A stretch of 64,000 nucleotides of DNA from Leptolyngbyales cyanobacterium. Its GTDB lineage: Bacteria; Cyanobacteriota; Cyanobacteriia; Leptolyngbyales; Leptolyngbyaceae. Of the stretch, positions 9,598 through 57,772 are shown one piece after another. Location of the stretch: assembly GCA_038227635.1 (NCBI GenBank), contig JBBRPT010000006.1:1-64000 (forward strand). The letters are read 5' to 3'. The position numbers and the translations under genes are program-made. The notes below the pieces were generated by a model. That model was not told the DNA's origin. It made no database searches and was given only the letters and a program-made list of their open reading frames with translations. Numbering within the stretch: the first letter of the stretch is position 1; every line of letters begins with the position of its first letter.

Positions 9598-9620
9598 AGA
9601 AAAAATGCAGCAATGCCTGA

Positions 9621-40248: not shown

Positions 40249-40530
40249 GGTAGTGTCCTAGACGTGTTGTTGCAGTTCAAATCGTCAGACTAAACGCTAC
40301 TCGATTGATGAATAATCCAATCACCACATCGGGCATCACGACCGACTTGGAAAAACAAATCGTTTTGCGAGCCATAGCGCTTCGCTCCGTCAAAGGCGTG
40401 CGCTTAATTCGCGTTCGCAACGTTAAGTGCTTTCGCTCAATCTTCTGAGTGTTGCGCTTTCCAACTGTATGGAACATGGGAGCGATCTGCCGTTCATAAG
40501 CACCCCACCCATCGCTGTAGAACTGCATAA
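40249..40530 (-). pseudogene. IS1-family transposase 3' fragment with terminal IR
   Basis: The minus-strand product is ..YSDGWGAYER...HTVGKRNTQKIERKHLTLRTRIKR..RKTICFSKS.., the InsB C-terminal pattern with an internal disruption. A GGTAGTG-type end lies at 40249. The N-terminal two thirds are missing. Confidence 0.7.
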
Positions 40531-40539
40531 TCCAAAAGT

Positions 40540-41518
40540 AACAACATATCTAGAACATTGCCGAGTGACCCGACCGAAGACGCAGCAACGCCCAATCCGT
40601 GGGTGCGAGTGCTCAACGGCAAACGAGGACTCCACATCGTCGTGCTCTACCTGATCCTGGGTTCGTGGCAGGTGCCCTGGAGTTTCTGTATCTGGCATGG
40701 CAAGGGCACTGCGAGTCCCCCTCAACTCGCCTGTAAACTCCTGGCTCATGTGCCCAAGACCCTCACGAAACGGTTTACGGTCATTGTTCTGGCAGATACC
40801 GAGTTGGGCACCGTGGAGTTTCTCACAGCCGTGCGAAAACGGCACTGGCGAGCGGTCGTTGGAATGCGCTGCACTCGTCTGATGGACACGGGCAAGCCCC
40901 TCAAGTCGCTTTACCGTCGTGGAACCCGAGAACAACAGGTACGACTCGTAGGTATGGAGATGCCGTTGACCGTCTCCTGGTTTTGGCTCAAACGCAGCGA
41001 GGGCAAGCGAGAACTGCGGTTTGTCGTCCCCACCCCCTATTCTGGCAGGGCTAATTTAAGGTCGAGAAAGAAAATCTATACCCTTTATCTTGCGTCGAGG
41101 CATTATTTGATGCTGAACGAAGACTCAAGCCTGTGGATTTTATCTGGTGACAACTAATCAGCCCTGCCTACTCTGGGGTCTACCTCGTGCGGTTAGGACG
41201 ACAACGGTGAACCATTGAGGGCTTCTTCAAAACCAGCAAACATCGCTTTGGCTAGCATAGCTTTGGACAGAAGACTCGGTTGGGCATCTATCGCTGGTTG
41301 ATTCTCTCCCTCATTGCTTACCTGCTTGCCCATTGGGTCTCTCGAACCTTCCCAAACTGAGCACCGCTGGATTGGGGGAAGTCAGTGCCCAAGCGATTGC
41401 AGAACTCTTGCCTCAAGTCCTATGGATCAAGCTATTGCATCAGATTCAAAAGTACCGGAAACTTGCGGATGATCTAGGGTTTGAAATCCTCGTCAAGCCC
41501 CTCCTCTTACCTTATTGA
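40540..41518 (+). pseudogene. IS4/IS701-like DDE transposase, 5'-truncated, with in-frame stops and a MITE insertion
   Basis: Reads ..WQVPWSFCIWHGKGTASPPQLACKLL..VLADTELGTVEFL..RELRFVVPTPYSG | insertion | YSGVYLVRLGRQR*TIEGFFKTSKHRFG*HSFGQ... The typical RW.IE..FK motif carries TGA in place of Trp. Confidence 0.7.
41046..41166. mobile_element. 121-bp MITE-like insertion with about 10-bp target-site duplication
   Basis: The inverted repeats are CAGGGCTAAT and ATCAGCCCTG. The flanks are CCTATTCTGG (41036..41045) and CCTACTCTGG (41167..41176). Removing the insert plus one flank restores the transposase reading frame (..PYSGVYLV..). Confidence 0.7.
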
Positions 41519-41772
41519 GACTGGTGCAAGATGTGAGTCAACACATATGCCTGTGAATAACCTACTGATAAGTTGGTTTGAAAGATTGTTGAAGTCACGG
41601 CAATATAAGCTATTGTCACCTTGAGTGGAACCTGCTGAATGATGCTGCCGACGTTTGGCAGAGGTGCATCTTTTGTGGTCAAATAGCGATCGCATTACAC
41701 AGAGTTTGATTCAGAGCTGGTGCCGCTTAGAGCAACCGTGAGCACTGATTAGCCCGGGAGTACCATACTCTG

Positions 41773-41866
41773 CAAAGCGGGATGGGAATTCAGTTTTAGG
41801 TCAGTCCCTAGACTATCAAAGACAGTGGATTTCGCCCAACATTCAAGCTTTAATTCTGACACTTTC
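41773..41866 (-). repeat. left copy of the 94-bp inverted repeat (IR-L)
   Basis: Its reverse complement matches 55173..55266 at about 87 of 94 positions by hand alignment. The inner boundary (GAAAGTGTCAG) is sharp, and similarity decays outward. Confidence 0.85.
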
Positions 41867-41912
41867 AAACCCGCAACCAGTTGAATGCGATTGGCACAGA
41901 TCGTTCGTCACT

Positions 41913-42668
41913 CTAAAAAGCGTTGGACACAACCGATTGTTCAACCTTCGATACCAACCGCAGCAAATTTTCCCCTAGAACTAGGGTTTCTTTTACCGGA
42001 GATAATCCAAGCAATCGAATTTTTTGGAGTTCAAGGGCAGGATGTAACCAAGGACCATCAGTGCCAAACAATACTTTGTGAGCACCTCCTCTTTGGACTG
42101 CTTGTGCTAAGTAATCAAACCGACGTACACCGGATGTATCGGTATAAACATTAGGAAAGCGAACAATTTGATCAATTACACGGATATGAGCCGTCCAGTC
42201 GTCTGCAAAGCTTCCTAAGTGAGGAATAATAAAGTTCACGTCAGGATATTGAGCTGCCAGCAAATCAATAATTTCAGTCTTGCCAGCGGGGTCATAAAGC
42301 AGCGGTAACCGAAACCTTTGAGCAACCTCGCAAAGTTCACGAGTGGCGGGGGCATCCAGTCGATGGGCTTTGATTCCGCAAAATCCCCATTGAATTACGG
42401 CTTGTTTAACGATCGTATGAACCCGTCCGCGATCGCGCTGAGCATGAACAAAGGCAAATCCCAAAAAACGCCCTGGATATCTGGCAATAATCCGAGCGGT
42501 ATTGGCATTCGCCTGAGCGTAATCGCTATGAAACGGAGCAAAGATCACAGTTTTATAAATGCCCACCGCTTGTGCCCGTTTCAAATACGTTGCGATCGGT
42601 GCATCGGTATCCCAAGGACCGGTTAACAAGTCGCCTTTTCCAGCATGGCAATGGCAATCGATAATCAT
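41913..42668 (-). CDS. amidohydrolase-2 (TIM-barrel metal-dependent hydrolase) family protein
   Basis: The N-terminus is MIIDCHCHAGKG (HxH metal motif); later IIPHLG and FGTDGPW are present. It is ATGA-coupled to the upstream M20 gene. Confidence 0.75.
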   Translation of the reverse strand: MIIDCHCHAGKGDLLTGPWDTDAPIATYLKRAQAVGIYKTVIFAPFHSDYAQANANTARIIARYPGRFLGFAFVHAQRDRGRVHTIVKQAVIQWGFCGIKAHRLDAPATRELCEVAQRFRLPLLYDPAGKTEIIDLLAAQYPDVNFIIPHLGSFADDWTAHIRVIDQIVRFPNVYTDTSGVRRFDYLAQAVQRGGAHKVLFGTDGPWLHPALELQKIRLLGLSPVKETLVLGENLLRLVSKVEQSVVSNAF

Positions 42669-44074
42669 TGTGTATACTCCGCAAAGAAGCGAATTACAGT
42701 CTCAATACCGTGAAAGAAGTTCGGTAAACTCATCTTTTCGTTGGGAGCGTGAATATCATCATCCGGTAATCCGAATCCCAGCAGCACGATCGGCACTTGC
42801 AGCCGTCGATGGAGGTGTTCGACTAGGGGAATTGAGCCGCCGCTGCGAGTGAACACAGGGGGAATGCCCCAAGTTTGCTCAACCGCTCGAATGGCAGCCT
42901 GCATCACTGCACTCTTTTGAGGCAACAAAACCGGACGCGATCTGCCCGTAATTTTTAAGCGGCTACGGATTGCGGGATGACTCAAGGATTTCAGATGGTG
43001 TTCCAGCAGTTGGGCAATTTCGGTGGGTTCTTGATCCGGAACCAGTCGCAGACTCAATCGAGCAATTCCTCGACTGGGAATGACCGATTTCGCACCTGCG
43101 CCTGTGTAACCACCCGCTAATCCATTAATCGTCAAGGCTGGGCGACTGGTCATGCGCTCAAACAAGTCGTAGCCAGGTTCACCCCAGCCCAAGGGCACAT
43201 CAAGGTCAGCTAAGATTTGCTGGTTGCGTTTACAGGCGCAGCGAAGTTGTTGTCGTTCTGTTGGTTGGAGGTCTCGAACCTGCTGATAGAAACCAGGAAT
43301 CGCCACTTTTCCGGTGCGATCGTGCAGTCCTGCAATCATTTCGCTCAAGGCTTGCAGGGGATTCAGCACGGCTCCTCCATATCGCCCAGAGTGCAGATCG
43401 TGCTTGGGTCCGCGCACTTCTAGTTCACAGTTGAGATTGCCGCGCAGTCCATAGATGATTGAGGGTCTGCCGCGTCCTAGCATCTCGGTGTCAGAGACCA
43501 AGACCGCATTAGCTTGAAGTCGTTGCACTTGTCGATCGAGAAACGCAGCTAAGTTCGGACTATTGATTTCCTCTTCCCCTTCTAGCCACACTTTGACATT
43601 GATCGGCAAGGTTCCAGTTGTTCGCAAGTAGCTCTCGATCGCTTTTAAGTGGATAAATAACTGTCCTTTGTCGTCGCTGGCTCCACGAGCAAACAAGCTG
43701 TCTCCCACTATGGTCGCTTTGAACGGATGCGATCGCCATTCATCGATTGGATCAACAAGCTGTACATCATAATGCCCATATAGCAATAACGTTGGCTTTC
43801 CGGTTGCCATTAACCAATCTGCATAGACACTGGGTGCGCCGCCATTCACGCTTGGAATCACTTGAACACGATGCAGACCAATTTCTGCTAAGTGTTGCGC
43901 TAACCACTGGGCACAGGCTTTGATGTCTTTTCGGTGCTGAGGAAGTGCAGAAATAGTAGGGAAAGCGATCAGTTCAGACAGTTGGGAGAGCCAGCGCGAT
44001 CGCATTTCTGGTTGCTGGCTGTAGAGCAGGGGTGCAATTGCTGCTGGTGAAGAGACAAGCATCGCTTTCGCCAA
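42665..44074 (-). CDS. M20-family metallopeptidase (dipeptidase / ArgE-DapE-CPG2 type)
   Basis: Contains LLLYGHYDVQ, GASDDKGQ and WLEGEEEINS, plus a dimerisation-domain-sized insert. Confidence 0.85.
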   Translation of the reverse strand: MAKAMLVSSPAAIAPLLYSQQPEMRSRWLSQLSELIAFPTISALPQHRKDIKACAQWLAQHLAEIGLHRVQVIPSVNGGAPSVYADWLMATGKPTLLLYGHYDVQLVDPIDEWRSHPFKATIVGDSLFARGASDDKGQLFIHLKAIESYLRTTGTLPINVKVWLEGEEEINSPNLAAFLDRQVQRLQANAVLVSDTEMLGRGRPSIIYGLRGNLNCELEVRGPKHDLHSGRYGGAVLNPLQALSEMIAGLHDRTGKVAIPGFYQQVRDLQPTERQQLRCACKRNQQILADLDVPLGWGEPGYDLFERMTSRPALTINGLAGGYTGAGAKSVIPSRGIARLSLRLVPDQEPTEIAQLLEHHLKSLSHPAIRSRLKITGRSRPVLLPQKSAVMQAAIRAVEQTWGIPPVFTRSGGSIPLVEHLHRRLQVPIVLLGFGLPDDDIHAPNEKMSLPNFFHGIETVIRFFAEYTQ

Positions 44075-44137
44075 GAGTTAACTTTACTGTGAACAATCAC
44101 TGTTATGTCAATCGTCTACTCGGAATTGTCGAGATCA

Positions 44138-45265
44138 TTAAAGAGGTCGATCTAGATTTGGATAGTCTCGATCAAGGTTCCAATCGCACTGACCCCGGTA
44201 ACAACCTGTGCCAACAGCGATTAGCATCCGCCGGTGCTGTCGTTCCTCTTTCAGCTTGTTCCCCGCCCGATTTGCAGCTTCATTGGCGATCGCAATTAAC
44301 TTCTCCTGCTCAGAGGACAATCCTCGGATTCGAGCCATAAACGCCTGCTCTTTTTTACGACCCAAACCATCGCCTGTATGAACATCAAAGATCATCGACA
44401 GCCCCCGAATCGTTCGTAATCCGAGTCGTCGAGTGATGGCTACGCAGGTTGTGATTCTGCCGCTCACGTCTTCTATTTGCAGACGACAGTAATCTGGATC
44501 GGAACACAGGCGAAGTAAGGTACTACTCCAGCGAAAACAAAGCTTTTCAGCACTTGCTTGTCGCACTGCATCCCTAGGTGGCAAAGCAATCAGGTTCTTC
44601 AACTTCTCGGTATCTGCTCCGAAGAACTCTCGTAACCGCCCAGTTTGACGCTCAAATTTTGTGAGCATTGCTTGTAGAGTCCCAGCCGCTAGATTCCACT
44701 GAATCATGCCCATCGAGATGCCATCGACCTCAGACACCCGACACCCAAACTCTCTGTTGTTTTCAAACCGAGTGGTAATTCTCAAAGCAATCAACTCAGC
44801 TTCGCTTAGTTTCGTTGGAGGCAGACACGCTACTTGCCCACCAACATTACAACTCCGTTTACGCTTGCGGGAGCGCTCTGCAATAAAATTGGCAGCATCT
44901 CTCACTTGTCCAGTTCTCTGTAAGTCACCCACCGGAGGCGGCAAAACCCTTGTGATAACAACTTTACGAGCGTAATCAATCCGAGGTATATTCACCATTG
45001 ACAAGAATGGAGTACGATTTGTCCACAAAGCATCGAGTGTTTGAGGTGCTAAACCATCGAGCACACGCAGCATTTCGTACATATTCAAGCCATTCAAGTT
45101 GAGATAAGCACTTCTCCAATCACTGACTCGTACAGCACTCTCAAAAGCTCGACGAACTGAGCTAGGTGTATATTCAAACTCTAGTAGTTTCCATTCTGCT
45201 TCTAATGGTTGATCGCGATATCTAACTGAAACGGGTTCAAATAGCCATTGTGTGGTTCGACTCAT
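44138..45265 (-). CDS. cluster protein H: N-terminal FE-x-P/EWK tag + GH46/lysozyme-like domain (tentative)
   Basis: The ATG at 45265 gives MSRTTQWLFEPVSVRYRDQPLEAEWKLLEFEY. Mid-protein, RFENNREFGCRVSEVDGISMGMIQWNLAAGTL resembles the GH46 chitosanase/lysozyme-fold catalytic segment (FEN...DG..G). No signal peptide. Confidence 0.35.
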   Translation of the reverse strand: MSRTTQWLFEPVSVRYRDQPLEAEWKLLEFEYTPSSVRRAFESAVRVSDWRSAYLNLNGLNMYEMLRVLDGLAPQTLDALWTNRTPFLSMVNIPRIDYARKVVITRVLPPPVGDLQRTGQVRDAANFIAERSRKRKRSCNVGGQVACLPPTKLSEAELIALRITTRFENNREFGCRVSEVDGISMGMIQWNLAAGTLQAMLTKFERQTGRLREFFGADTEKLKNLIALPPRDAVRQASAEKLCFRWSSTLLRLCSDPDYCRLQIEDVSGRITTCVAITRRLGLRTIRGLSMIFDVHTGDGLGRKKEQAFMARIRGLSSEQEKLIAIANEAANRAGNKLKEERQHRRMLIAVGTGCYRGQCDWNLDRDYPNLDRPL

Positions 45266-45293
45266 GGTTTTATTAGCTCGAAAATAGAATAAT

Positions 45294-46178
45294 TCACAGC
45301 GATCTAGAAGCAATGATCGTGAATAAGGCATTAAAGAGCCTGTTCAAAGTGTCGCGGTTCTTGAGAGATTGTTCTGTTAAATCGCCCCCCTTTGCCCGGC
45401 GAGCGAACTCTAACAGAAAGCGCCGAGTGACTTGATCGAACTCGCCAGTTTCTGAAATGCTTGCTCCTAATAGACTGTTCAGCGATTCTTGAACAAAGAC
45501 TAGTGTTGATTTTTGCAGCGGATTTCGAGGTCGTCCCCGATTCATGTCACAGTGAAAATGATCGCGGTGATCGGAGCGGTGATAGTCGATCACAGTAGTA
45601 AAAGAGAGCCTGAGACAGGCATTCATGCGGCGCAAGATTGCTCTTTCTGCCGGATTGCGGAAGTTATGAACGATCGTTTCTCGATTGGAGCTAGAAGAGA
45701 TGCCCGATTGTTGCCAGCGCAGCCCAGCAATGTCGATCGCATCGCCAAAAGAATGATTGCTCAATGTGTCTGTGTTACTGATACATCGACATAGATAAGA
45801 GCCGAGGGTTAGAATCGCTTCGATCGGTAAGCCAAATTGAGTCATATTGTTAACAAAGGTACTCAACGCTGTTTCAACTGATGGAATAAACCGCTGCGTT
45901 CTAGGGCGCAATCGCTTGCTTACCACAATCAAGGGTGTGCTTGGATCTTTCCGAACTGCATCTACATACTCAAAAGGGATACCATTTACGGCTTGGACAC
46001 ACAGCAAATTTGGAATAGCTGGACAAACTTTAGGCGTTTTACAGCGTAGCTTTGTTGTGCTGGCAGCTTCAGAACAAGTGCGACGGGCTGAAGTCGGAAC
46101 TAGCTCCCATTCAGTTTCGCCAAGCCACCCATCGGTTCGAGTCGGTATTTCAAACTGCAAAGGATTTTGCTGCCTCAT
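45294..46178 (-). CDS. cluster protein G: N-terminal tag + LAS-superfamily (extensin-like-C / M15-like) zinc hydrolase domain
   Basis: The ATG at 46178 is ATGA-coupled to F and gives MRQQNPLQFEIPTRTDGWLGETEWELVPTS. The later signature is SYLCRC...LSNHSFGDAIDIAG...VIDYHRSDHRDHFHCD, i.e. the H..G.A.D ... H.DHFH.D pattern. No signal peptide. Confidence 0.55.
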   Translation of the reverse strand: MRQQNPLQFEIPTRTDGWLGETEWELVPTSARRTCSEAASTTKLRCKTPKVCPAIPNLLCVQAVNGIPFEYVDAVRKDPSTPLIVVSKRLRPRTQRFIPSVETALSTFVNNMTQFGLPIEAILTLGSYLCRCISNTDTLSNHSFGDAIDIAGLRWQQSGISSSSNRETIVHNFRNPAERAILRRMNACLRLSFTTVIDYHRSDHRDHFHCDMNRGRPRNPLQKSTLVFVQESLNSLLGASISETGEFDQVTRRFLLEFARRAKGGDLTEQSLKNRDTLNRLFNALFTIIASRSL

Positions 46179-47125
46179 CGGGTCACCTCTGTTGAGTTCT
46201 TCAGAAATGGAGTCGCTTTGATACGGGTTTCCCAATAAGTAATCGGGACTCTGTTGTGATCGCCTGTTGTTGATCGATTTACCGAGACGTTAGAGAGTTT
46301 TTGCCGCTTTGCATATATTTGTAAACTGGTTGCCAGAGGTGCAGTTTGACTGTTGGCAATGTAGTAAATGAAGAGATTACTGGTGGGATTCCGCTTTGCC
46401 CAACTTCCCCAGCCCGTATCATCTCCAGTGTTATACGTACAATCAAATCCCCAGCATTCACGGATTTTGCTTGCATAAGTAGCTTTAGAAAGCGCGATCG
46501 TTCTCATCGGTAAACCGCCCCCTGAATGACAGGCAAGAATCAGATTACCAAGGCTGAGCGGTTGATCAAACTGCATGGAAGGCGCGTAATACGTCCGAAT
46601 TGCTGCTAACACCTGATCAATGTAAGCATCGAAGCCACTGGCTTGAGTGAGATTGCCGGATTCCGATCGCGACCCTAAAGTTGGAGCGACGAGAATAGCA
46701 TTTTTACTGCTGGCATTGACTCCTTCTCGAAATGCAAAGAACGGATAGAACTGTCGATTCCAATATTGGTCGATCGTCAAGTTCGTTGGATAGTAGCCAG
46801 GAGCCGGAGATCGACCGCGCTGAACTGGAGTGCGATGATGACCCTGGAGGTAGAGAATCAGATCGACCTGAGGTGTAAACCGATAGTTAGCAGGCAGAAA
46901 AACCCCGGTCATGGGTTGCGGACAGACTTTAGTGCGATCGCGCTTTGTGCTACATCCAAGATTGATGTTGAGATAGAGAGTTGAGAAGAGGGGTTGAGAT
47001 TCTGACCGAATCAAGGATGGAGCAGCTTGAGTCGGAGATTCAAATAGCCCATTCTGCTCAAAGTTTAGATAAGAAGTCGGGCTGCGTGAAGGAGCCTCGA
47101 ACATCCACTGAGTTGAACGATTCAT
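46175..47125 (-). CDS. cluster protein F: N-terminal tag + alpha/beta-hydrolase-like domain (tentative Ser hydrolase)
   Basis: Starts MNRSTQWMFEAPSRSPTSYLNFEQNGLFESP. A nucleophile-elbow-like LILACHSGGG is present, with later D/H candidates (GDDTGW, TGDHNRVP). No signal peptide. Confidence 0.35.
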   Translation of the reverse strand: MNRSTQWMFEAPSRSPTSYLNFEQNGLFESPTQAAPSLIRSESQPLFSTLYLNINLGCSTKRDRTKVCPQPMTGVFLPANYRFTPQVDLILYLQGHHRTPVQRGRSPAPGYYPTNLTIDQYWNRQFYPFFAFREGVNASSKNAILVAPTLGSRSESGNLTQASGFDAYIDQVLAAIRTYYAPSMQFDQPLSLGNLILACHSGGGLPMRTIALSKATYASKIRECWGFDCTYNTGDDTGWGSWAKRNPTSNLFIYYIANSQTAPLATSLQIYAKRQKLSNVSVNRSTTGDHNRVPITYWETRIKATPFLKNSTEVTR

Positions 47126-47154
47126 ACAGTACTCCTAGCGAGGATAGATGAGTT

Positions 47155-48311
47155 CTATCTCATGACATTTGGGGCAGGCATCATCCCGTTCGATCGTGCA
47201 AATACCGGATCGGGTCGTGTTCCACGAGGAGGAGGACCTGGCTGGTAAATATTGCGCGGGGGTGGAGTGGGACGGCTGATCCGCATTCCTTCTTCGCTGG
47301 AGATCCATTCTTCAGAGTATTCGGCGATGCGGTAGAGCAACGCTTCAAAGTCAGTGCGGTTCTTCTTGAGGACGAAGGGTTCGGCTAACCAACGGATGAT
47401 TTCTCGTCCAGCAACCGCCATCCGGTTCATCGTACTGGCGTGAACGGATTGACCAAAGTATTGCCACAAAACTAGTTCAATCATTTCCCAGGCATTAGCA
47501 GCCCCAAACTGGGCGCGAACATCGGGAGCATCTAGAACCTTAAAGGCTTCCGCTAATGCTTGACTGGTTTCTACCCGCAGCACATTGATATAGCCGTAAG
47601 AAGAGTTCTTCAAGTTGTTGCGTAAATCGAGTCCGGTTCGACGGACGATCGCCATGGAACCAAAGGTCGGATCAGTGGCATTTTGGCGAATCACTTCGCT
47701 AATTCGTTTGTCGCGCCAGAACTTTGCGGTTTCGCTGATAAAGTGAGTGAAAAGTCCATGAAACTCTGGATTGGCACGAGCGCCCGGTCCCGGATCGCGC
47801 CCATAGCCTAAGACCCGCGTATAGGCCCGACGGCGATCGCCCTGTTGGTAGCGCAAAAGGTTGTGCTTATCAAAGCGGTAGAGTCCGTAAGCCCCTTCGC
47901 CGCTGGAAATTCGCAAGGTTCCGGCTCGGAATAGCTCTTGCAACTTGTGCATCACTTTAAACACACCCAAAAATTCATGGATAGCGATGTAGTAGAGGTC
48001 GCCTGCCGCAAGGATGCGATCGCTGGTCACCGTATCGTCGTAATCCACAATGCCGCTGGAAACCTGGGTTGCTCCTAAATTGGTGGGTGCCGTGTTGCCT
48101 AACCCGATCAGGTCGGCTAGTCCCCCATCCGGCGGAACGCCTTTGCCATTTGGGCTTCATCAAATTTGCGAACCTGATCATCCACCGTTCGGTTCAGCAC
48201 TTCTGCCAATTGAGGATTGGCAACCAACTCTGGACCCAGTTGTTCAATGGTGTTTTGCAGGAGCGCAGCAATACGATCGTTGCGCTGGTCGTAATCTCTG
48301 GTGTTCGGCAT
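47155..48311 (-). CDS. cluster protein E, unknown function; apparently split by a frameshift at a C5 run (48122..48126)
   Basis: A 64-aa ORF (48311..48117, good RBS AGGAATAGGAAC) and a 297-aa ORF (48048..47155, GTG start) sit in adjacent frames. The downstream frame is already open from ~48150. Adding one G/C in the 5-mer run fuses them into a protein of about 385 aa. Confidence 0.55.
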
Positions 48312-48424
48312 ACGTTTGTTCCTATTCCTGATCTAAATATCTCTGAGTGCTGCTGAGGGAAGGGCATCGCGATCGCCAACCGGATCACCATGCGAAGCCT
48401 TAATTGTTTCGGTTCACGATTGCT

Positions 48425-49954
48425 CTAACTCTCCCCAGGTGGACTAGTCGGGGGAACCGTGCTACCCACTCCCAGATCTGCCAGTGTATCGAGTTGGAAG
48501 AGCAACTCACTCAAGGTTTGCTGCACCCGCTCAAAAGACAGCACTCTGTCTAGCAGTAAGCCCTTGGAGGGGTCGCTTTTAAGGGTGGACAAGACAATCC
48601 CAATCACCCAGAACAAGGTATCTGCCTGGTCGGTGACAAAATCTAAGCCAAACTGACCTGAAGCGGACAAGATAGATGGCGCTTCCAGGGTGGCAAACCG
48701 CTCAACCCACTCGTTGAAATCATTGACGGTGATGTCCGGTAGCAGCAAGCTAAACGTGGTGGGACTGGAGAACAACGACAGGCTGATGTCGATCGCGTTG
48801 GGAGAGTTGATCGCGTTGGAAGGGTTAGGTCTCGTCCGAGGAGATCCTAAGATCGAGAACAGTGCGGTATCCGATCGCCGCTCGCTGGCAGTAAATCCGA
48901 TCGAATCCATTGCCGCCATCAGGCTAGTATTGCTATCTGAAATCACGGGCAACATGATGTAAGACCGCGACAGCCGCTCACTATAGCGCCCTGTTACGTT
49001 TGTCTCCACGTCATTGGTTACAGCGAACTGCTCAAAAATTGTTCTTAATGTACCTGCATAGTTTTTCAGTAACTCAAAGCCTGCAACTTGTGTTTCGTCT
49101 GACAGTGTGACTGGGAAAACCTCTGTGCCGTTTCTTTGCCCTCGGAATCCACCCCGATCGACCAACCGTGCTTGTTCGCCCAATTGAATAATCGAACCAT
49201 CTAGCGTGTTGAGATACGTTTCCACCCGTTCTCGACGGGGTTCATCAATGCGTCCAAATTCATCAACTAAAGTGTTGATTTGCGATCGAATCAACGCCCG
49301 TAATGCTTCCACCGCATCAATATCCGCTATGGGATCAAAGGGTTGCAGTGCCTCCAAAACCCGCAGGGCATCTGCCGCAATAATGCTTGTCTGACGATAG
49401 AGATTTGCCTGTTCCACAGACAACTGACCCACGCCACTGCTATTCGGTGGTGCTGACCTGTAACCGGCGGCTGCATCATTGCCGAGACTGTCAGGTGAAT
49501 AGTAGCCGTTGCCCACGGTGGAGTAATTGCCGCTTCCGTTCAGGGAAACGATACTGCGAGTGGGCGTCATCATCACTTTGCCATGAGCATCCGTTGGGAA
49601 AGCACTGTTCAAGGCATTAACAAATCCATCATATCCGCGTCCCGGTGTTCGCCCTAAAACCTGAGTCAGCGCCCGTTCTACCTGCTGAGTTAAGGCATTT
49701 GCGTTTCCACTGGCACTAGAGCGAGAGGAGCCATTGTCGTAGATGGTCGGTTCATTGCCTGCCGATCGTCCTAAGATTTGGGCAATTTGAGCCAACTGCT
49801 TGGGAATGGCTTCTGTAAGCTGTGGCTGTAAAAAAAGGCTGTTCAGGAGAACCTGACGCATTTCTTGCAATTGGTCTCTTTGTCGTAGATTCTGAAGCTG
49901 CCCATCGTTGAGCACCTCACCGTTGATCAGCGTTCCGAAAACTGGAAAAGCCAT
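48425..49954 (-). CDS. cluster protein D, unknown function
   Basis: 509 aa. No TM helix, signal peptide or catalytic motif recognised. A G/S/N/Y-rich low-complexity segment spans about residues 70-175. Confidence 0.7.
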   Translation of the reverse strand: MAFPVFGTLINGEVLNDGQLQNLRQRDQLQEMRQVLLNSLFLQPQLTEAIPKQLAQIAQILGRSAGNEPTIYDNGSSRSSASGNANALTQQVERALTQVLGRTPGRGYDGFVNALNSAFPTDAHGKVMMTPTRSIVSLNGSGNYSTVGNGYYSPDSLGNDAAAGYRSAPPNSSGVGQLSVEQANLYRQTSIIAADALRVLEALQPFDPIADIDAVEALRALIRSQINTLVDEFGRIDEPRRERVETYLNTLDGSIIQLGEQARLVDRGGFRGQRNGTEVFPVTLSDETQVAGFELLKNYAGTLRTIFEQFAVTNDVETNVTGRYSERLSRSYIMLPVISDSNTSLMAAMDSIGFTASERRSDTALFSILGSPRTRPNPSNAINSPNAIDISLSLFSSPTTFSLLLPDITVNDFNEWVERFATLEAPSILSASGQFGLDFVTDQADTLFWVIGIVLSTLKSDPSKGLLLDRVLSFERVQQTLSELLFQLDTLADLGVGSTVPPTSPPGES

Positions 49955-49993
49955 TGTTACTAACCTCTGCTGATGTATAGAGTCATCGTTCTG

Positions 49994-51364
49994 TTACCGC
50001 CTGCCGAGAATGCGGTAGAAATTATCGGTAATGGTTTGAGGAGTGGCAAGTTGGCGATCGAGGGCAAACCTCGCCGCACTGATCATAAAACGGACGGGAA
50101 TGGTACCGGGATCTTGTCCGGCGGCAAGTCGCTGTCCTGCCAATTCCACCATCGCCATTTGCTGAGGTCCGAAGGGGATTGCCTGGGCCAGAGACTTGTT
50201 GCCAAACTGACGATACGGTTGAAAAACCATCGTATCTACGACCATTTCGGCAGCCGGATAAAAGGTTTTCATGAAATCAGGGGGAATGTCGTTGGGCGTG
50301 ACTCTGGGATAGAGCCGTTGCCAGATCCGCGTCAGATCCGCCGCCATTTTGTCAAACCCCATGCGGCGCAGCAAAATCAGGTTGATCAGCGTTCGCAGAT
50401 AGGGCGTGGGATGGACGGACATGCCGCTAAATTGAACCGTGCTGGCGGGCGATCGCCCCACCACATCCATCAACGATTCCACCGCAGCCGGACCACCCAA
50501 AACCAGAGCAAACATATCTGCCATGGTTTCTTTGTGCCAGCGTGCCCAGACCTGGGCGACCTGGGCAGGAAATTTACCTTCGGTGGTCAGGCGTTGATAG
50601 AGGCGGGCAGGGATTTCTTCCCACAATCCCAAATCTGCCTGAAGATTATGCGACACCTCATGCAGAATGCTAGAGAGTGCCCAGACATTATCTAATCGAT
50701 GTTGCGGCAACATGATCAGCGGAAACGGATTGGGATTGCGTCGCAGACGCATAATCGGCACCCCCCGACGAAAGGTTGCCGGACTAAAGCCACTGTTGGC
50801 ATAGCTAAACGGCAGCAAACTGGGCGTGGGTTGAGCCGTTCCCAGACCTACGTAGAGGTCTTCATAGCAATTGGCACAGATGCGATCGACCGATCGTAAG
50901 CGTTCGCCAAAATTAGAGAGCCGCTGGATGAATAAATCGAAGTAAAAATCCCAAATGCCTTCGACATAAAGCACCTGGCTGCCCACCTTCTGCTTGCGCT
51001 CTAACAACACTTGCAGGCGGCTGGTGGTGGGTTCTCGGCGGGCAGCGGCAGCGGCAGCTTCCACCCAGCGAGACATTTCGACTAATTGACTGCGGAATTG
51101 GTCAATGAATCGATTCACCGCTTCAATATGTGCCTCGCTTGGAGCCGCCACCCCGCTGCCAAACTCATCATTACGAAAAGGACGCAGCGATTTGGCATGG
51201 CGGGTAAGGTTAATCGACTGAATATTCAGCCAGTTATCCAGCAGGAGCCGTTCACTGGCGGTGGTTGCTCCTTTCATCACCGTTGCAGTCGCTTGCGCTG
51301 GGGCAGCAACTTTAGAATCTGAAGGCGAGTGTTGAGGCGGGGCAGAAGAGTTTGCCATGATCAC
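49994..51364 (-). CDS. cluster protein C: putative gluzincin-type metallopeptidase (HExxH)
   Basis: 456 aa with SSILHEVSHNLQADLG and a downstream WHKETMADMFALVLGG (candidate third-ligand Glu). GTG at 51364 and ATG at 51358 are both possible starts. Confidence 0.5.
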   Translation of the reverse strand: MIMANSSAPPQHSPSDSKVAAPAQATATVMKGATTASERLLLDNWLNIQSINLTRHAKSLRPFRNDEFGSGVAAPSEAHIEAVNRFIDQFRSQLVEMSRWVEAAAAAARREPTTSRLQVLLERKQKVGSQVLYVEGIWDFYFDLFIQRLSNFGERLRSVDRICANCYEDLYVGLGTAQPTPSLLPFSYANSGFSPATFRRGVPIMRLRRNPNPFPLIMLPQHRLDNVWALSSILHEVSHNLQADLGLWEEIPARLYQRLTTEGKFPAQVAQVWARWHKETMADMFALVLGGPAAVESLMDVVGRSPASTVQFSGMSVHPTPYLRTLINLILLRRMGFDKMAADLTRIWQRLYPRVTPNDIPPDFMKTFYPAAEMVVDTMVFQPYRQFGNKSLAQAIPFGPQQMAMVELAGQRLAAGQDPGTIPVRFMISAARFALDRQLATPQTITDNFYRILGRR

Positions 51365-51422
51365 GGCTTCCTGGGGGTCAAAGATTCGTGGCGTTTAGAA
51401 CGCATAGAACGCAGAACAGGGG

Positions 51423-52583
51423 TTAGCGACCTGCCGCAGCACGGCGGCTGGCACACGCCGGACACTGACCATTTCTAGTGGCGGTGGCACGGCGGGGGTT
51501 GGGAGGTGCCGTGCGTTGACGCAGAACGGCATTCCGCACGATCGCCCGTTGCACCAGTTGGGGATTGCTCAACACACGCTGGCTAGCGGCTGCCATTGCC
51601 TTGACTGCCAGAGGACCTGTGATCGGCTGACCGGATTTAGAAGCCGCTTTCAGCGTGGCGATCGTCCGTCGTTGAATGGTGGGTACGGTTCGCAGCAGTT
51701 GCCGCCCGATCGGACCTTGTTGGCGTAACGTCTTCACAAGTTGACTATTTGCCTGTGCCAAAATTGGCATCACCGGACGCAGTGCCCGTCGTCCGCCCAT
51801 AATCGTAATCGTGATCGGCAAGGCTGCGCCCAGGGTAGATTCTGCTTCGGCTTCGGTAGCGGCTTCTGCCGATTGCGCTGCTAGAAATTCGGTCAGTGCC
51901 GCTTCATGGGCGACTTCTGTATTTCCAACTTCGGCTTCCGATTCATTGGTGCCAAAGAATTCTGACTCCATCTGTCCCGCTTCCATTTCCCCTTCTTGAA
52001 CCAGGGCACTGGTGAGTTTGGCGGCAAGGGGTCCTGCGATCGGACCAATGCCCGGAATCAAGGCAGCGAGTTTACCCGCTACGATCGGAGCAAATCGCTT
52101 TGCTAGAGGAGCCGCTACTTTTGCAATCTTACCAATGCCTCGTTTGACCGCACGAAACGCTTTCTTGAAGAAATACTCACCCTCATCTTCGGGATTGGAG
52201 TAAGGATTACTGTAGTGGGCTGCTTCGTGGCTGGTTTCCCATTCATCCTCAAACTCAGGATTGGAGTAAGGATTGGAGTAAGGATTGCTGTAGTGGGCTG
52301 CTTCGTGGCTGGTTTCCCATTCATCCTCAAGCTCAGGATTGCTGTAGTGGGCTGCTTCGTGGCTGGTTTCCCATTCATCCTCAAGCTCAGGATTGCTGTA
52401 AGGATTGCTGTAATGGGCAGCTTCATGGCTGGTTTCCCATTCATCCTCAAACTCAGGATTGCTGTAGTGGGCAGCTTCGTTTTCCCATTCATCCTCAAAC
52501 TCAGGATTGCTGTAAGGATTGCTGTAATGAGCTGCTTCATGGGAAGCAGGAGCCTCAAACATTGCTTGATGTTGCGTTACCAT
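51423..52583 (-). CDS. cluster protein B: charge-segregated repeat protein
   Basis: 386 aa. MFEAP is followed by six tandem cassettes HEAAHYSNP(YSNP)n-E(F/L)EDEWETS. Next comes the cationic segment FFKKAFRAVKRGIGKIAKVAAPLAKRFAPIVAGKLAALIPGIGPIAGPLAAKL, then an acidic block (EGEMEAGQMESEFFG...EAEAES), then an Arg-rich C-terminus. Confidence 0.8.
   Translation of the reverse strand: MVTQHQAMFEAPASHEAAHYSNPYSNPEFEDEWENEAAHYSNPEFEDEWETSHEAAHYSNPYSNPELEDEWETSHEAAHYSNPELEDEWETSHEAAHYSNPYSNPYSNPEFEDEWETSHEAAHYSNPYSNPEDEGEYFFKKAFRAVKRGIGKIAKVAAPLAKRFAPIVAGKLAALIPGIGPIAGPLAAKLTSALVQEGEMEAGQMESEFFGTNESEAEVGNTEVAHEAALTEFLAAQSAEAATEAEAESTLGAALPITITIMGGRRALRPVMPILAQANSQLVKTLRQQGPIGRQLLRTVPTIQRRTIATLKAASKSGQPITGPLAVKAMAAASQRVLSNPQLVQRAIVRNAVLRQRTAPPNPRRATATRNGQCPACASRRAAAGR
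52180..52545. repeat. in-gene tandem DNA repeat (variable 51-75-bp units) encoding the HYSNP..EWE cassettes
   Basis: GTAGTGGGCTGCTTCGTGGCTGGTTTCCCATTCATCCTCAA(A/G)CTCAGGATT recurs six times, with a variable number of GGAGTAAGGATT/GCTGTAAGGATT sub-units. Confidence 0.9.
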
Positions 52584-52664
52584 TCGTAAAACTCTCCTTG
52601 TGAATTAGGGTGGGAGTACGTGTCAAGGGTTGAACCCCGATCGGGGCATTCCTGCTGCTTCAGG

Positions 52665-53555
52665 TCAAGCGGCAGCAACGGCTCGTTGTCGGATCACCGC
52701 GTTGCGAATCATTGCCTGCCTGACCATTTGGGCGTTCCCAAAAACGCGGGCAGCATGAGCCGCTATGACTCGTCGAACCAGCGTTGCCGTGATCGAACGA
52801 CCCAATCGCGGTGCCGCTCGTAAACTTGCGATCGTTCGCCGTAGAATCGTGGGAATCAGTCGGAGTAAGCGTCGCCCTGCCGTACCGCGTCGATGCAGTA
52901 AATGGACTAAATGGGCAGTTGCGGCAATCAACACAGGCATCAGCGATCGCAGCCGTCGTCTGCCCCCCGCACTCCGCACTGCGATCGGAACCACCGTGCC
53001 AATTAAAGCCGATGCTTCACTGGGATTGCGACTGTGGCTCGCTTCTGCCGCCAATACCTCGGTCAAAGCAGCTTCTTGAGCGGCTTCTGAATCACTCGCT
53101 TCGGCTTCTGCTGCATAAAGACCAAAGAATTCTGCTTCCAGATACTCTGTTTCCAGATCACCTTCTTGAAGCAAAATGCTGATGAATCTGCGCGCCATCG
53201 GAGTTGAAACTAACCCCGATCGAGGAGTCGCTCCAAGCAGCGTTCGGGCGACGATCGGAGCTAGATGTTGGGCAAACGGTGCAGTTACTCTCGCAACTTG
53301 CCGAATGCCTTGAAGGGCTTGTCTAAAGGAAAACTCTGCTTCCCACTCACTTGCCATTTCGGTATGAGGGTAATGCGAAGCTTCCTGGGTTTCCCATTCG
53401 TATTCGTCCCCCCGATAGGAGTAAGGTCGAGAATCGTGAGTTGTTCTGAACATCTCCCATTCATCGGGTCGTTGCGGATGAGAATAGTGAGTTGCTTCAA
53501 ACAGGTTATTGCTATTACCTAGTCCTTTTCCATTAGTATTCGCGTATCCACTCAT
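52665..53555 (-). CDS. cluster protein A: diverged paralogue of B
   Basis: 296 aa. LFEATHYSHPQRPDEWEMF, YRGDEYEWETQ and SHYPHTEMASEWEAEF correspond to the cassettes of B. It is then colinear with B: APFAQHLAPIVA vs APLAKRFAPIVA; LLQEGDLETEYLEAEFFG vs LVQEGEMEAGQMESEFFG; EAALTEVLAAE vs EAALTEFLAAQ; and the Arg-rich tail ..MIRNAVIRQR vs ..IVRNAVLRQR. Confidence 0.8.
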   Translation of the reverse strand: MSGYANTNGKGLGNSNNLFEATHYSHPQRPDEWEMFRTTHDSRPYSYRGDEYEWETQEASHYPHTEMASEWEAEFSFRQALQGIRQVARVTAPFAQHLAPIVARTLLGATPRSGLVSTPMARRFISILLQEGDLETEYLEAEFFGLYAAEAEASDSEAAQEAALTEVLAAEASHSRNPSEASALIGTVVPIAVRSAGGRRRLRSLMPVLIAATAHLVHLLHRRGTAGRRLLRLIPTILRRTIASLRAAPRLGRSITATLVRRVIAAHAARVFGNAQMVRQAMIRNAVIRQRAVAAA

Positions 53556-53719
53556 TAGAGTGTTCTCCCAGCATAGGCGGTTGAACTAATATGACGTTCG
53601 TCTTATATATAACAGGTGTCACTTCTAGAGTTACAGTCCCTTTCTCAAGGGTCGCTAATGGTTGGTAGCACAAACGAGCGTCACTCATTTAGGGGGCTTG
53701 GTCTAACTCAACCCCTCCA

Positions 53720-54298
53720 TGCCATTGCATTCGGATCGAGCACGGGCGGCATCCCAGTCCCTCTGAAGCAGTGCTCGATAGTCAAAGTGTGAAAAGTGCT
53801 GCCGGGGTTCAGGATGCGGTGGGTTTTAATGGGGCAAGGTGATCAAAGGACGCAAGCGATTTGCCACCGTCGATACTTTAGGCTTGGTCTTGCGCGTGTT
53901 GGTAACAGCCGCCCGTGCTGGGGAATGCGAAGGCAGCAAACAAGTGCTCCAATGAGTCCAGCAACGGGGCAAAGCGGGGTCTCGCCTACATACGATTTGG
54001 GTAGACGGCGGCTTTGACGGCAGTCCCTTCATGCAGTGGGTCATCACGGTCTGTCGGTGGATGGTGCAGGTAGTGCTGCAACCAGAGCAGACTAAAGGGT
54101 TCGTCTTGCTCAAAAAGCGCTGGGTCGTTGAGCGCACAGCCCTGGAGGCGGGTTTCCCTCCGTAGGAGACTGTGTAGAGCGGACTTTTAGTTGATGCACT
54201 GTCGTCGCTTGGTGCACGACTACGAATTGCTGCTAGAAACGTCTGAGACGTTGATCTATCTGGCAATGATTCGGATTATGGTTCGGCGCTTGGCGTAA
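53720..54298 (+). pseudogene. IS5-family DDE transposase remnant (5'-truncated, frameshifts and stops)
   Basis: Across three frames it reads ..PSPSEAVLDSQSVKSAAGVQDAVGFNGA / KVIKGRKRFATVDTLGLVLRVLVTAA...RLHTIWVDGGFDG...KKRWVVERT / VHDYELLLETSETLIYLAMIRIMVRRLA*. The track ORF 53826..54266 (-) is antisense to it. Confidence 0.75.
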
Positions 54299-54754
54299 AT
54301 TTTGACCGCTCTATACTTTAAAGCCCCCTCTAACCCAATGGGGCGATTTTCTTTCAGTACCAAGTTTCCCAGTATATACTTAATTAGCGTTGCTCTAAGC
54401 AATCGGTAGCCCGGTTGAAAAATCACACTTTAATCTCTCAGGACTTAACGTCAGAGCGTTGCTGAGCGATGCTATGGATTCGCCCCTCAACCCTATTCTG
54501 GAGGACTTCTGGACTTTCAAAGTTCCCCAGAATGGGGGATTTATAGGGCTTCCAAGAGTGCGGCGACTCAACAACTCATATCTGCATCCAGCAACGCCAA
54601 CGTCAGTTCAAACTGTTACTGTTCATTTCAAAATACTCGAAAGGTCTATCAGTATTTGCATTACCCATCGCGCTGCTCGCTTCATTAAAGTCTTTACGGT
54701 TCTCTTCTAACTCGCTCTCGAAGCATCGCGTTCTAGCTGCTTAAGGAGATACAA

Positions 54755-55168
54755 ATGGATGCTAATAATGACGAAAATCTGAGTTCAGATCCTCAAAATT
54801 TTCTGTCTTTAGACCAAGAAATTTTGCTGAACTGTTTAGTGAAAAAGGTTTCTCAAGCTGAACCTTTGAAACGTCTTCAAGCGGCTGAAGAAACGGTTAA
54901 CGAAATCATAATCGAATCTGACATTGATGGAACGCATTATTATCTTGTTCGGTGTACACCAAAGTCTGCTCTCCAAGTTAATTTGAGTCCGCGTGAGTTT
55001 GCGATCGCTCGCCTAGTTGCTCAAGGGTTTCCAAACAAATGTGTTGGTAATCAGCTCAACATTAGCCCTTGGACTGTTGCGACTCATGTCCGTCGTATTT
55101 TTGCTAAGCTAAGCGTCAATTCAAGGACGGCAATGGTATCAAAGCTGATGGAAGCAGGTTTGTTGTAG
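54755..55168 (+). CDS. LuxR/GerE-type HTH transcriptional regulator (no receiver domain)
   Basis: 137 aa. The C-terminus is LSPREFAIARLVAQGFPNKCVGNQLNISPWTVATHVRRIFAKLSV. The gene ends 5 nt before IR-R. Confidence 0.8.
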   Translation: MDANNDENLSSDPQNFLSLDQEILLNCLVKKVSQAEPLKRLQAAEETVNEIIIESDIDGTHYYLVRCTPKSALQVNLSPREFAIARLVAQGFPNKCVGNQLNISPWTVATHVRRIFAKLSVNSRTAMVSKLMEAGLL

Positions 55169-55172
55169 AAAC

Positions 55173-55266
55173 GAAAGTGTCAGAATTAAAGCTTGGCTAT
55201 TGGGCGAAATTCACTGTCTCTGATAGTCTAGGGACTCACCTAAAACTGAATCCCCATCCCGCTTTG
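55173..55266 (+). repeat. right copy of the 94-bp inverted repeat (IR-R)
   Basis: GAAAGTGTCAGAATTAAAGCTTGGCTATTGGGCGAAATTCACTGTCTCTGATAGTCTAGGGACTCACCTAAAACTGAATCCCCATCCCGCTTTG. It lies 105 nt upstream of the recombinase start. Confidence 0.85.
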
Positions 55267-55361
55267 ATGAACTGTCTCCATTGTAATTCATCGCTCACCA
55301 CTCAACTGAAACGCACCACCAGTCTCAGCCATAGCGGTTCTCAGTCTAGTCATCGATTTAG

Positions 55362-55908
<547 letters not shown>

Positions 55909-56120
55909 CGCCCGCTTTCGCCCACTCAACTTCAAACCCCTTCATCTGAGGACACCTAAACGCCTTATAGGGAAATCTTTTTGGGCGAAACCGTAACTTT
56001 CTGTTCAAATGCGCCCGCTAGTCCAAATTGAGCCTCCCCACCCTATCATTTTTGCGACAGAACCCTATACCTTAGGGTTGTGCAAAGAACCCCTTTCTCG
56101 CGCAAATCTTCGAGAACCCA

Positions 56121-57254
56121 TCACAGCAAAGATTGGAGTTGCTGGAGGTCTGCCAATGCAGCTACTAATGCAGTTTGACGGATCTCTGAAGAGAGTTCAG
56201 GATGCTTCACAACATAGGAAATCTGGGTCTGTAACTGATCTAACCCTATTCTGAGGTCGGGCATTTCGTCCTTATGGACAGGACAGAATGCCGCAGGTAG
56301 GTGAGTATCGTGATCAATAGAGGTTGCCAACACTTGCTCAATGTTTAGCCCCAACTGCTGAAGGGTTCGCTGAAGGGTTTCGATCACGCCATGCATCTCG
56401 ATCGGATCAAACACGCGCAAAATGCTGGTCTGAGTAACAATCCCTAAGTTTTGCCCCCAGTTCCAAGACACTACTAATCGTCGCACTTGGCGGTCTGCCA
56501 TCACTTGGTGAGCCGTCCAAAGAGAGTCTTCAGGACTCAGCACAAATAGCGGCGTACTCATCACCGTTTGAGCGAGAGTTTTGCGAACATCCAATCCAAG
56601 TGCCTGAAAATGAACGATATCCCGTTCGGTGACAATGCCAACAGGCTGTTGAACCAAATCGTCTGGGTTTGACGGTTCAACAATGACGATACAGCTAATT
56701 TGATGCGTCGCCATCAATTCAGTTAATTGCACAATAGGCGTGTTGGGTCGTGCCACAATCACCTGTTTGGTCATGACCTCGGCAACTCGTCGGATTTTGA
56801 GGAGGTTTGTGGGTCGCAGAATGTGGCGAATGCTCTCGATCGAGACGACTCCAATCAAACGCTGCTGATCATTGGCGATCACCAAATGACGAATGCGATG
56901 GCGACGAAACAGAAACAATGCCGCAAAGATATCGTGTAATGCCTGTTCAGACATTGAGAGCACGGGATGGTGCATTACCTCACAAATTTTTGTAGTGTGA
57001 AGGTCAGTGCCAACAGCAGTCAACTGCACCAAGTCGCGCTCGGTAAAAATGCCCTGTAGTGTTTCGCCCTGCATGACTAATACACAACTCGATCGCGCAC
57101 CATGAAGAGGATCAGTGCGGTAAATCTGTGCCGTTTCATTCATCAAACTCACTACGTCCACCAAGCAGGCATCGGGGGAGACGATTAGGGGATGACGATC
57201 GATCGCTTCAGCGAGAGGAGGAGTGCCTACTGAATAGTCGAAACCCACGGTCAT
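56121..57254 (-). CDS. CBS-domain protein (two CBS pairs) with C-terminal helical extension
   Basis: Four CBS-like units occur (..VVSLMNE...VLVM..L.GIFTERDLV.., ..HHPVLSM..RHLVIAN..LIGVVSIESI.., ..VMTKQVIVA..ISCIVIV..PVGIVTERDIV.., ..VMSTPLFVL..VRRLVVS..LGIVTQTSIL). Confidence 0.8.
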   Translation of the reverse strand: MTVGFDYSVGTPPLAEAIDRHPLIVSPDACLVDVVSLMNETAQIYRTDPLHGARSSCVLVMQGETLQGIFTERDLVQLTAVGTDLHTTKICEVMHHPVLSMSEQALHDIFAALFLFRRHRIRHLVIANDQQRLIGVVSIESIRHILRPTNLLKIRRVAEVMTKQVIVARPNTPIVQLTELMATHQISCIVIVEPSNPDDLVQQPVGIVTERDIVHFQALGLDVRKTLAQTVMSTPLFVLSPEDSLWTAHQVMADRQVRRLVVSWNWGQNLGIVTQTSILRVFDPIEMHGVIETLQRTLQQLGLNIEQVLATSIDHDTHLPAAFCPVHKDEMPDLRIGLDQLQTQISYVVKHPELSSEIRQTALVAALADLQQLQSLL

Positions 57255-57358
57255 AAAATCTGATCTAACTTAATGGATAATGAGTCAAAGATACAAGCCT
57301 TCAGAATAAAATTTCTGCTCCATCCACCACTGAACTGGGTGTTAAGGATTAAAACTTT

Positions 57359-57772
57359 CTAAACTTTTGGAGTGGACAAATCTGTCTGAGGAGGTGATTC
57401 TAACCCTTTGAGTCTGGGAGTGCGTCCATAGAGGCGATCGAGCACCCGTTTGATCGAGATGCGCTGCCATTGCTGTCCACGCTTGGTGCTGTAGCCCTGC
57501 CGATTTAGCCAGTCTGCCACTTGCTGAAGCGACTTGCCTGACTTGTGATGACGGCGGATTAAATCAATGATCTGCTGCTCGGTGGGGTCTTCGATTAGTT
57601 CACCGTCGAGCGATCGCTGCCCAAACGCAGGTGAGCCATAGCCGACATAGCCTCCCTGAGCCGCTTTCTCTTTGCGCCCTTGCTCTAATCGTTCCCACAC
57701 CTCACGATCTTGAAAATTTTCGCCCATGTGTTTGTGCTGTAGGTCACCTGACTCTAAGCATATCTCTACCAA
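57359..57772 (-). pseudogene. fragment of a serine-recombinase 'Recombinase' domain protein (catalytic domain missing)
   Basis: GGYVGYGSPAFGQR...DPTEQQIIDLIRRHHKSGKSLQQVADWLNRQGYSTKRGQQWQRISIKRVL matches the DNA-binding Recombinase domain pattern. There is no resolvase N-domain, and it abuts the next gene. Confidence 0.55.

Follow-up and report, generated by a model that had tools for sequence, protein, structure and literature searches.

We analyzed a 64,000-nt stretch of a Leptolyngbyales cyanobacterium genome (contig JBBRPT010000006.1, positions 1 to 64,000; hereafter the window), in which a 13.3-kb gene module is bracketed by two inverted copies of a 94-nt sequence (the 94-mer) and a small serine recombinase gene lies just outside the right-hand copy. 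The reading that we favor, tentatively and without yet calling it probable, is that the two copies are inward-facing termini of an unclassified low-copy element. The 94-mers would be copies of a conserved terminal stretch, about 85 to 94 nt long, of such an element or of an island boundary; the exact terminus would be the end that begins with GAAAG, and the sequence has so far been found in Leptolyngbyales only. The two termini would lie in opposite orientation, both directed toward the module and placed after the stop codons of its two outward-pointing end genes, and the module would be DNA trapped between them, not cargo bounded by outward-facing transposon tips. The recombinase gene, which a preliminary description of this locus had proposed as the agent of inversion or mobilization, is instead the dead TnpR of an unrelated Tn3-family transposon fragment, with no functional tie to the repeats.

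Two inverted copies of a 94-nt sequence

The left inverted repeat (IR-L; 41773 to 41866, minus strand) and the right inverted repeat (IR-R; 55173 to 55266, plus strand) both turn their GAAAG terminus toward the module, and their module-side termini read GACACTTTC at 41866 and GAAAGTGTC at 55173. A repeat search of the window returned arms of 94 nt each, 93% complementary and spaced 13,306 nt apart, and an ungapped local alignment found identity at 87 of the 94 positions, confirming the pair as first proposed; the mismatches fall at repeat positions 24, 25, 27, 39, 48, 65 and 80. The longest perfect identity between the arms is 23 nt, and the inner 23-mer common to both, GAAAGTGTCAGAATTAAAGCTTG, has exactly two occurrences in the window, where shuffles predict 0.00. 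A profile built from all known copies found no third 94-mer in the 64 kb. Both edges of the repeat are sharp. Weaker similarity had been said to continue outward for about 70 bp, and this proved indistinguishable from chance, since local and collinear alignments of the outer flanks gave nothing beyond what shuffles or random window segments gave (14/500 shuffles, p = 0.25 to 0.38 and p = 0.08 in separate tests). The distances to neighboring genes had been correct to within 1 nt: IR-L lies 46 nt from the stop codon of the amidohydrolase gene (open reading frame [ORF] 41913 to 42668), IR-R begins 4 nt after the stop codon of the LuxR-type regulator (ORF end 55168), and 104 nt separate IR-R from the TTG start of the recombinase gene at 55371.

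Within the 94-mer we found no dyad, no res- or hix-like site and no internal direct repeats, save a 14-nt AAGCTT-centered palindrome in one copy, and its own two ends have in common only xAAAG...CTTTx. It matched nothing in Rfam even at E values up to 10, it contains no tRNA and no promoter- or terminator-like site, and its RNA fold was not significant (z-scores of -1.5 to +0.3). The integron attC cores GTTRRRY and RYYYAAC are absent from its ends, and neither a hairpin with R''/R' cores nor a significant fold, the marks of an attC site or a structured RNA, was present; an RNA element, an attC site and a terminator were all considered and nothing was found for any of them. An origin as a coding fragment was rejected as well: one frame is open in both copies, but six of their seven differences change the amino acid, and the related copy at locus L006, described below, carries a frameshift and a stop codon. 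Nor could the 94-mer be related to the terminal inverted repeats (TIRs) of the IS5-family insertion sequence (IS), or to a Tn7-like end with repeated transposase-binding sites, there being no internal repeats.

Copies in other genomes and a precise junction at the GAAAG end

An exact scan with the 23-mer over one genome per species returned two loci, each with a single match and both in Leptolyngbyales metagenome-assembled genomes (MAGs). No match was found in 72,556 plasmids or, with a 19-mer, a 20-mer and a degenerate 29-position pattern, in viral and metagenome collections, with the proviso that the collection scans required exact words of 19 to 29 nt, which diverged parent elements could escape. 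A full-text literature search for the sequence strings of the 94-mer and for the Sequence Read Archive run numbers gave nothing. The first additional copy (L006, also contained in L025, contig JBBRMC010000037.1) is 83 to 84 nt long, is 86% identical and starts 67 nt past the stop codon that ends the final gene in a mycosporine-like amino acid (MAA) cluster. The second (L007, in a Myxacorys MAG) is a 39-nt fragment with 95% identity that follows a pyridoxal phosphate-enzyme gene in a nonribosomal peptide synthetase (NRPS)/radical S-adenosylmethionine neighborhood, beside an unrelated IS remnant.

The 23-mer search pattern itself contained GAAAG, and the L006 and L007 copies alone cannot prove a boundary at that motif. 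We fetched close relatives of the MAA-cluster ligase and aligned one of these loci, L021, to L006. The two are 91.3% identical at the DNA level from inside the cluster to L006 nt 7066 and then diverge exactly at TTT/GAAAG (the slash marks the junction), L021 reading CCTCGTTT followed by CCCATAGC where L006 reads CCTCATTT followed by GAAAGTGTCAG. Because the homology ends exactly there, and because this comparison is free of search-pattern bias, the GAAAG end is shown to be a precise DNA junction. Beyond the ~85-nt unit the L025 contig continues for 6.4 kb, and nowhere in it does the downstream sequence of L021 reappear. The 85- to 94-nt sequence is therefore not a self-contained miniature inverted-repeat transposable element (MITE) and would instead be the conserved margin of a longer block whose content varies; TIRs of its own, a target duplication, a whole insertion and many copies, by which a MITE is recognized, were all lacking. 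Past the 94-mer copy, the stretch of L025 from 7596 to 10937 carries a gene for a small PLMP-like/HNH endonuclease, 13 tRNA genes arrayed over 1.7 kb (8675 to 10354) and an Hcp gene, and this block, abutting the mycosporine-type cluster, looks horizontally acquired. All three full-length copies begin 4 to 67 nt past a stop codon and in the same polarity; their outer edge varies.

Geometry of the pair

The preliminary description had offered, as one possibility, that the repeats are the inner ends of a composite-like structure. As geometry this is supported, because both GAAAG termini, which the filled/empty-type comparison of L006 with L021 shows to be precise, face the module with the same polarity as in L006; mobility would be conjectural, and the part of the proposal that gave these ends to a recombinase-bearing element did not stand, intact relatives of the recombinase locus being free of the 94-mer. 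We infer that the 94-mer is the end of a mobile element, and the origin of the pair is inferred in the same way. Two separate insertions in opposite orientation could have produced the arrangement, or a single intramolecular transposition of the replicative, inversion type could have left the same end of both copies directed toward the inverted segment. Replicative intramolecular transposition of this type is known for Tn3-family, IS26 and Mu elements. Whatever the route, the pair would now be inert.

Several observations weigh against two inward-facing termini. No transposase, integrase or second end could be assigned to the 94-mer family, and there is no transposition gene in the 6.4 kb beyond the L025 terminus. 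The outer (CAAAGC) ends show neither a direct repeat nor a target-site duplication, the flanks reading ACTCTG up to one end and ATGAAC from the other. The known copies number only four, of which two were retrieved by a pattern that included GAAAG, and the rule of same polarity after a stop codon counts three cases. IR-L and IR-R lose similarity at the same point, 94 nt from the terminus, so that for two independently decayed long elements at least one would have to be truncated there or the interior would have to be naturally variable. Lastly, the L006/L021 junction could be a rearrangement breakpoint instead of an insertion end.

The lack of target duplications also tells against an alternative that we consider unlikely, in which the 94-mers are the terminal inverted repeats of a mobile insertion cassette (MIC), with tips at the outer CAAAGC ends, the 13.3-kb cluster as cargo and a transposase acting in trans. 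Such an arrangement would agree with inverted repeats of less than 100 bp that enclose the passenger genes exactly and have no intact transposase between them, and with a cluster that sits in mobile-element debris here and in ordinary contexts elsewhere; TnXax1 provides a precedent, with MICs of 3 to 19 kb that have 92-bp inverted repeats and with solo repeats (PMC4337579). Documented MICs always preserve their outer tip, have 5-bp duplications beside it and belong to a known cognate Tn3-family element (PMC4337579). At this locus the pattern is reversed, conservation and the precise joint being found at the inner GAAAG end. Passenger genes do lie between short inverted repeats without a transposase of their own, but the plasmid, species-representative genome, metagenome and viral scans (exact 19- to 29-nt words) found no autonomous IS or transposon that has these repeats and could be the parent. 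A hidden Markov model (HMM) of the neighboring Tn3-type inverted repeat does not recognize the 94-mer.

A contig of a second strain may bear on whether the arms have exchanged sequence. L004 (run SRR19962014; 99.45% identical over 2.7 kb) ends at window position 55202, exactly 30 nt inside IR-R, and an assembly graph with k = 31 would stop in this way if the two repeat copies of that strain were identical over at least 30 nt. The window copies differ at positions 24, 25 and 27, within that stretch, and the break may reflect gene conversion between the arms or an exchange of sequence between them. About 23 nt of perfect identity is the lower limit for RecA-dependent exchange in E. coli. RecA-dependent inversion between the arms is physically possible, yet it should be rare, because their longest perfect identity is only 23 nt. 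Where short-read contigs of SRR19962015 span the two repeats, they show the module in the same single orientation as the window.

The same contig break, as if the copies were identical at that point, could be enlisted for site-specific inversion by a recombinase encoded elsewhere, acting on one-armed sites like the sfx sites of shufflons, with a crossover near GAAAG that flips the module. The sites are inverted, and conservation is confined to one side of the precise junction. Set against this are the single orientation just described, a 94-mer with no dyad or core-type symmetry, the lack of an intact recombinase nearby, and other genomes that hold single copies; flipping a whole operon together with its regulator would also have no obvious regulatory consequence. 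We regard inversion in trans as quite improbable.

If the 94-mer does end a genuine element family, it would mark the way in which accessory gene clusters of Leptolyngbyales, a group with a poor catalogue of mobile elements, come to be enclosed and are perhaps moved. It has so far been seen next to three kinds of cluster, namely the module described here, the MAA sunscreen cluster and an NRPS cluster. A bolder generalization, one we would be surprised to see borne out in full, is that the ~90-nt sequence is the conserved end of an undescribed family of large elements of filamentous cyanobacteria with variable cargo, including tRNA arrays and HNH genes. Its members would join precisely and with a single polarity, between a few and some tens of nt past the stop codons of operon-terminal genes, and pairs of them could trap, and possibly move, metabolic clusters such as this module and the MAA and NRPS clusters.

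The adjacent recombinase gene

The recombinase gene is a TnpR resolvase pseudogene (55371 to 55908, plus strand) with a TTG start. In tblastn searches it matches its intact relatives in three pieces and three frames, and the alignment traces its two frameshifts to a 1-nt and a 10-nt deletion. L003, an independent short-read contig of run SRR19962015, is 100% identical over 52485 to 56013, the whole gene included, so the frameshifts are not assembly errors. The catalytic serine, Ser10, is kept, as had been noted together with the two frameshifts; the catalytic Arg8 is replaced by Ser (R8S) and Arg68 by Cys (R68C), the residue roles being those established for gamma-delta resolvase. The closest intact protein (P0121) has 91% amino acid identity and another relative 81%, and both adjoin DDE_Tnp_Tn3 genes; a homologue on a Pseudanabaena plasmid is divergent from an annotated Tn3 family transposase and lies with it within 42-bp inverted repeats.

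The res site of intact relatives consists of subsite I (28 bp), a 22-bp spacer, subsite II (36 bp), a 3-bp spacer and subsite III (25 bp). Compared with the closest intact copy (L015), the window is 93.7% identical at the DNA level, only from 55340 on, 73 nt past IR-R, and it retains the last ~700 bp of the transposon. These comprise the one surviving part of res, subsite III (55340 to 55370, plus strand; the subsite itself at 55343 to 55367), the tnpR pseudogene, a Tn3-type inverted repeat that overlaps its stop codon just as the Pseudanabaena element has it (CTTAGCG...AAACCCC; 55904 to 55940, minus strand) and a second inverted repeat described below. The window lacks the left Tn3 inverted repeat and res subsites I and II, and tblastn with two TnpA proteins found no tnpA in it, a gene that is present in relatives L002 and L015 to L018. 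With none of tnpA, a three-subsite res and 38- to 43-bp inverted repeats at both ends in place, the Tn3 remains are a fragment rather than an element.

It was the start of this gene 104 nt from IR-R, where res- or hix-type sites normally sit, that had suggested that a Hin/resolvase-type recombinase inverted or mobilized the segment, or that the repeats are the inner ends of two recombinase-bearing copies. Of all the explanations considered here we give this one the least credence. The intact relatives carry tnpA and res where the 94-mer would be, none contains anything like it, and it has no similarity to their res subsites; it is not positioned where res sits, and the recombinase's own crossover site, subsite I, has been lost. 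The 73-nt spacer between IR-R and the first Tn3 base (55267 to 55339) is unrelated to the transposon. The left flank contains no TnpA or TnpR remnant, and there is no serine recombinase near the 94-mer copies of L006/L025 and L007. The evidence gives no support to an invertible cassette under the action of this recombinase, a mobilizable cassette keeps some probability, and on these sequence comparisons the recombinase interpretation as a whole is refuted. The preliminary description had also named outcomes that would speak against it: two of these, repeats with no positional link to recombinases and a module that occurs in relatives without the repeats, are what we found, and the third, a 94-mer that is a common dispersed repeat, is not. 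The case cautions that a recombinase gene beside an inverted repeat is no proof of an invertible cassette.

Two other ways of connecting the repeats to this fragment were discarded. The spacer had been a candidate for decayed res subsites I and II, with a 'VDF' codon run as the TnpA N terminus, and this was ruled out by L015 homology that begins at 55340. The 94-mer as a Tn3-family end with a GGGG tip was likewise rejected, an HMM of six such inverted repeats giving no match to it at E values up to 100. The 10-mer TTTCGCCCAA is common to the 94-mer and the window Tn3 inverted repeat (p of about 0.002 to 0.009; against the Kovacikia inverted repeat, p = 0.37).

A second Tn3-family terminal inverted repeat (55985 to 56039, minus strand) is partnerless in the window and matches the inverted repeat of Kovacikia pA at 30/30 positions and that of L016 at 39/43. 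Its core is 84 to 90% matched in plasmids of Acaryochloris, Photobacterium, Methylophaga and enterobacteria. Contigs L003 (ending at 56013) and L014 (ending at 55996) both break inside it, which implies that the source genome has this Tn3-family element in other places too. In Kovacikia minuta pA (L001), an IS630-family insertion at 4839 to 5950 occupies the res spacer between subsites I and II of a Tn3-family copy.

Flanking mobile-element debris

The surroundings of the cluster are a mobile-element junkyard of IS1, a ~1.26-kb IS, the Tn3 fragment and a CBS/large-serine-recombinase pair. To the left lie an IS1 transposase fragment (40277 to 40528, minus strand) and the 3′ two-thirds of the ~1.26-kb IS (40563 to 41540, plus strand), an IS that is found at five places on Kovacikia pA. 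To the right, at 56121 to 57772, a CBS-domain gene is followed by a large serine recombinase fragment with the Recombinase domain only, a gene pair that is also present, with about 70% nucleotide identity, on a plasmid of Nodularia spumigena.

The right TIR of the ~1.26-kb IS is intact (41511 to 41540), with its tip toward the module and 232 nt from IR-L, and a 22-mer in the right-hand spacer (55306 to 55327) matches this TIR at 16/22 positions, also toward the module. Together they would fit a decayed composite of two copies of this IS, in which the 94-mers are what conservation or gene conversion has kept of a longer and older inverted duplication. The right-hand match is suggestive only, as chance alone should yield three matches with at most 7 mismatches in the window. 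The IS ends lie at unequal distances from the 94-mers (232 versus 39 nt), the DNA between the IS ends and the 94-mers is not significantly similar, and the 94-mer copies found elsewhere have no ~1.26-kb IS near them. An IS composite strikes us as very unlikely.

The bracketed module

The segment between the repeats contains ten co-directional genes (41913 to 53555, minus strand), which encode an Amidohydro_2 protein, an M20 dipeptidase and eight proteins without a family assignment, one of them with an Extensin-like_C domain. They are followed by an IS5-family remnant (about 53726 to 54333), whose TIRs are unrelated to the 94-mer and which is the only transposase-related DNA inside the bracket, and by a LuxR/GerE-type regulator (54755 to 55168, plus strand) that is 39% identical in its C-terminal part to the regulator heading the cluster in a relative. 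The amidohydrolase, M20 peptidase, IS5 remnant and regulator are thus as first described; the gene count differs, with eight ORFs besides the amidohydrolase and M20 genes in place of a nine-gene operon.

The module is an ordinary and widely conserved cyanobacterial cluster. Its 509-aa protein has hundreds of cyanobacterial homologues, and collinear clusters at the four loci that we fetched (L008 to L011) are 72 to 83% identical at the nucleotide level and lie in other contexts; one is headed by a homologous GerE regulator, and conserved neighbors, peroxidase genes, are common to two. None of the four contains a 94-mer (nhmmer, E up to 10), and no other inverted repeat brackets the cluster at L009 or L010, the two that were checked. 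Because homologous clusters elsewhere lack the 94-mer, the repeats are an addition in the source lineage and no part of the cluster itself.

Cluster relatives include PG_binding_1, Glyco_hydro_25 and Extensin-like_C domains, a hint of cell-wall or peptide turnover. The regulator at 54755 to 55168 is divergent from the operon, and in L009 (6405 to 6965) it is co-directional; given the IS5 remnant between regulator and operon, the regulator gene may have undergone a local, IS-associated inversion. At window position 48152, within the gene at 47154 to 48311 (minus strand), the window has TTT where the SRR19962015 short-read contig has TTTT. The extra T restores a 385-aa protein (relatives all have 384 to 385 aa) from a gene that is split in the window, and the difference probably stems from a homopolymer error in the source assembly, the alternative being a frameshift of very recent date. 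A tandem repeat with a 66-nt period (52169 to 52542) lies inside the gene for a 386-aa protein and encodes acidic HEAAHYSNPYSNPE(L/F)EDEWE-type units; its copy number seems to differ from that of the L009 homologue.

Comparison with known systems

The Hin, Gin and Cin segments resemble this locus in having inverted repeats at their ends and a small serine recombinase gene close outside, the position that gin and cin occupy. Unlike them, the locus has neither an intact invertase gene nor ~26-bp dyad crossover sites in the 94-mer, its dead gene comes from a resolvase context, and its segment is 13 kb of operon in place of a switchable promoter or alternative gene ends and has been observed in one orientation. 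Tn3/gamma-delta-type transposons apply to the recombinase only. Its tnpR is 91% identical in amino acids and 94% in nucleotides to a copy with tnpA and a three-subsite res, and Tn3-type inverted repeats follow the gene; the differences are that the window holds the last ~700 bp, lacks tnpA, res I/II and the left inverted repeat, and retains tnpR as a pseudogene.

MICs, such as MIC231 of Bacillus cereus and the TnXax1-IR MICs of Xanthomonas (PMC4337579), come closer in outward form, with passengers between inverted repeats of less than 100 bp, no transposase of their own, a range of 3 to 19 kb that includes the size of this module, solo copies elsewhere and mobile debris around. They differ in that here the precise conserved junction is the inner one, no duplication is present and no parent element was found. 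A composite transposon, or the product of a replicative inversion, differs from the arrangement described here in that each flanking copy is only about 94 nt long, no transposase is assigned, target duplications are absent and any movement of the pair would be hypothetical. What it has in common with this locus is the geometry itself, two inverted copies of the same end with the same terminus directed toward host-type DNA.

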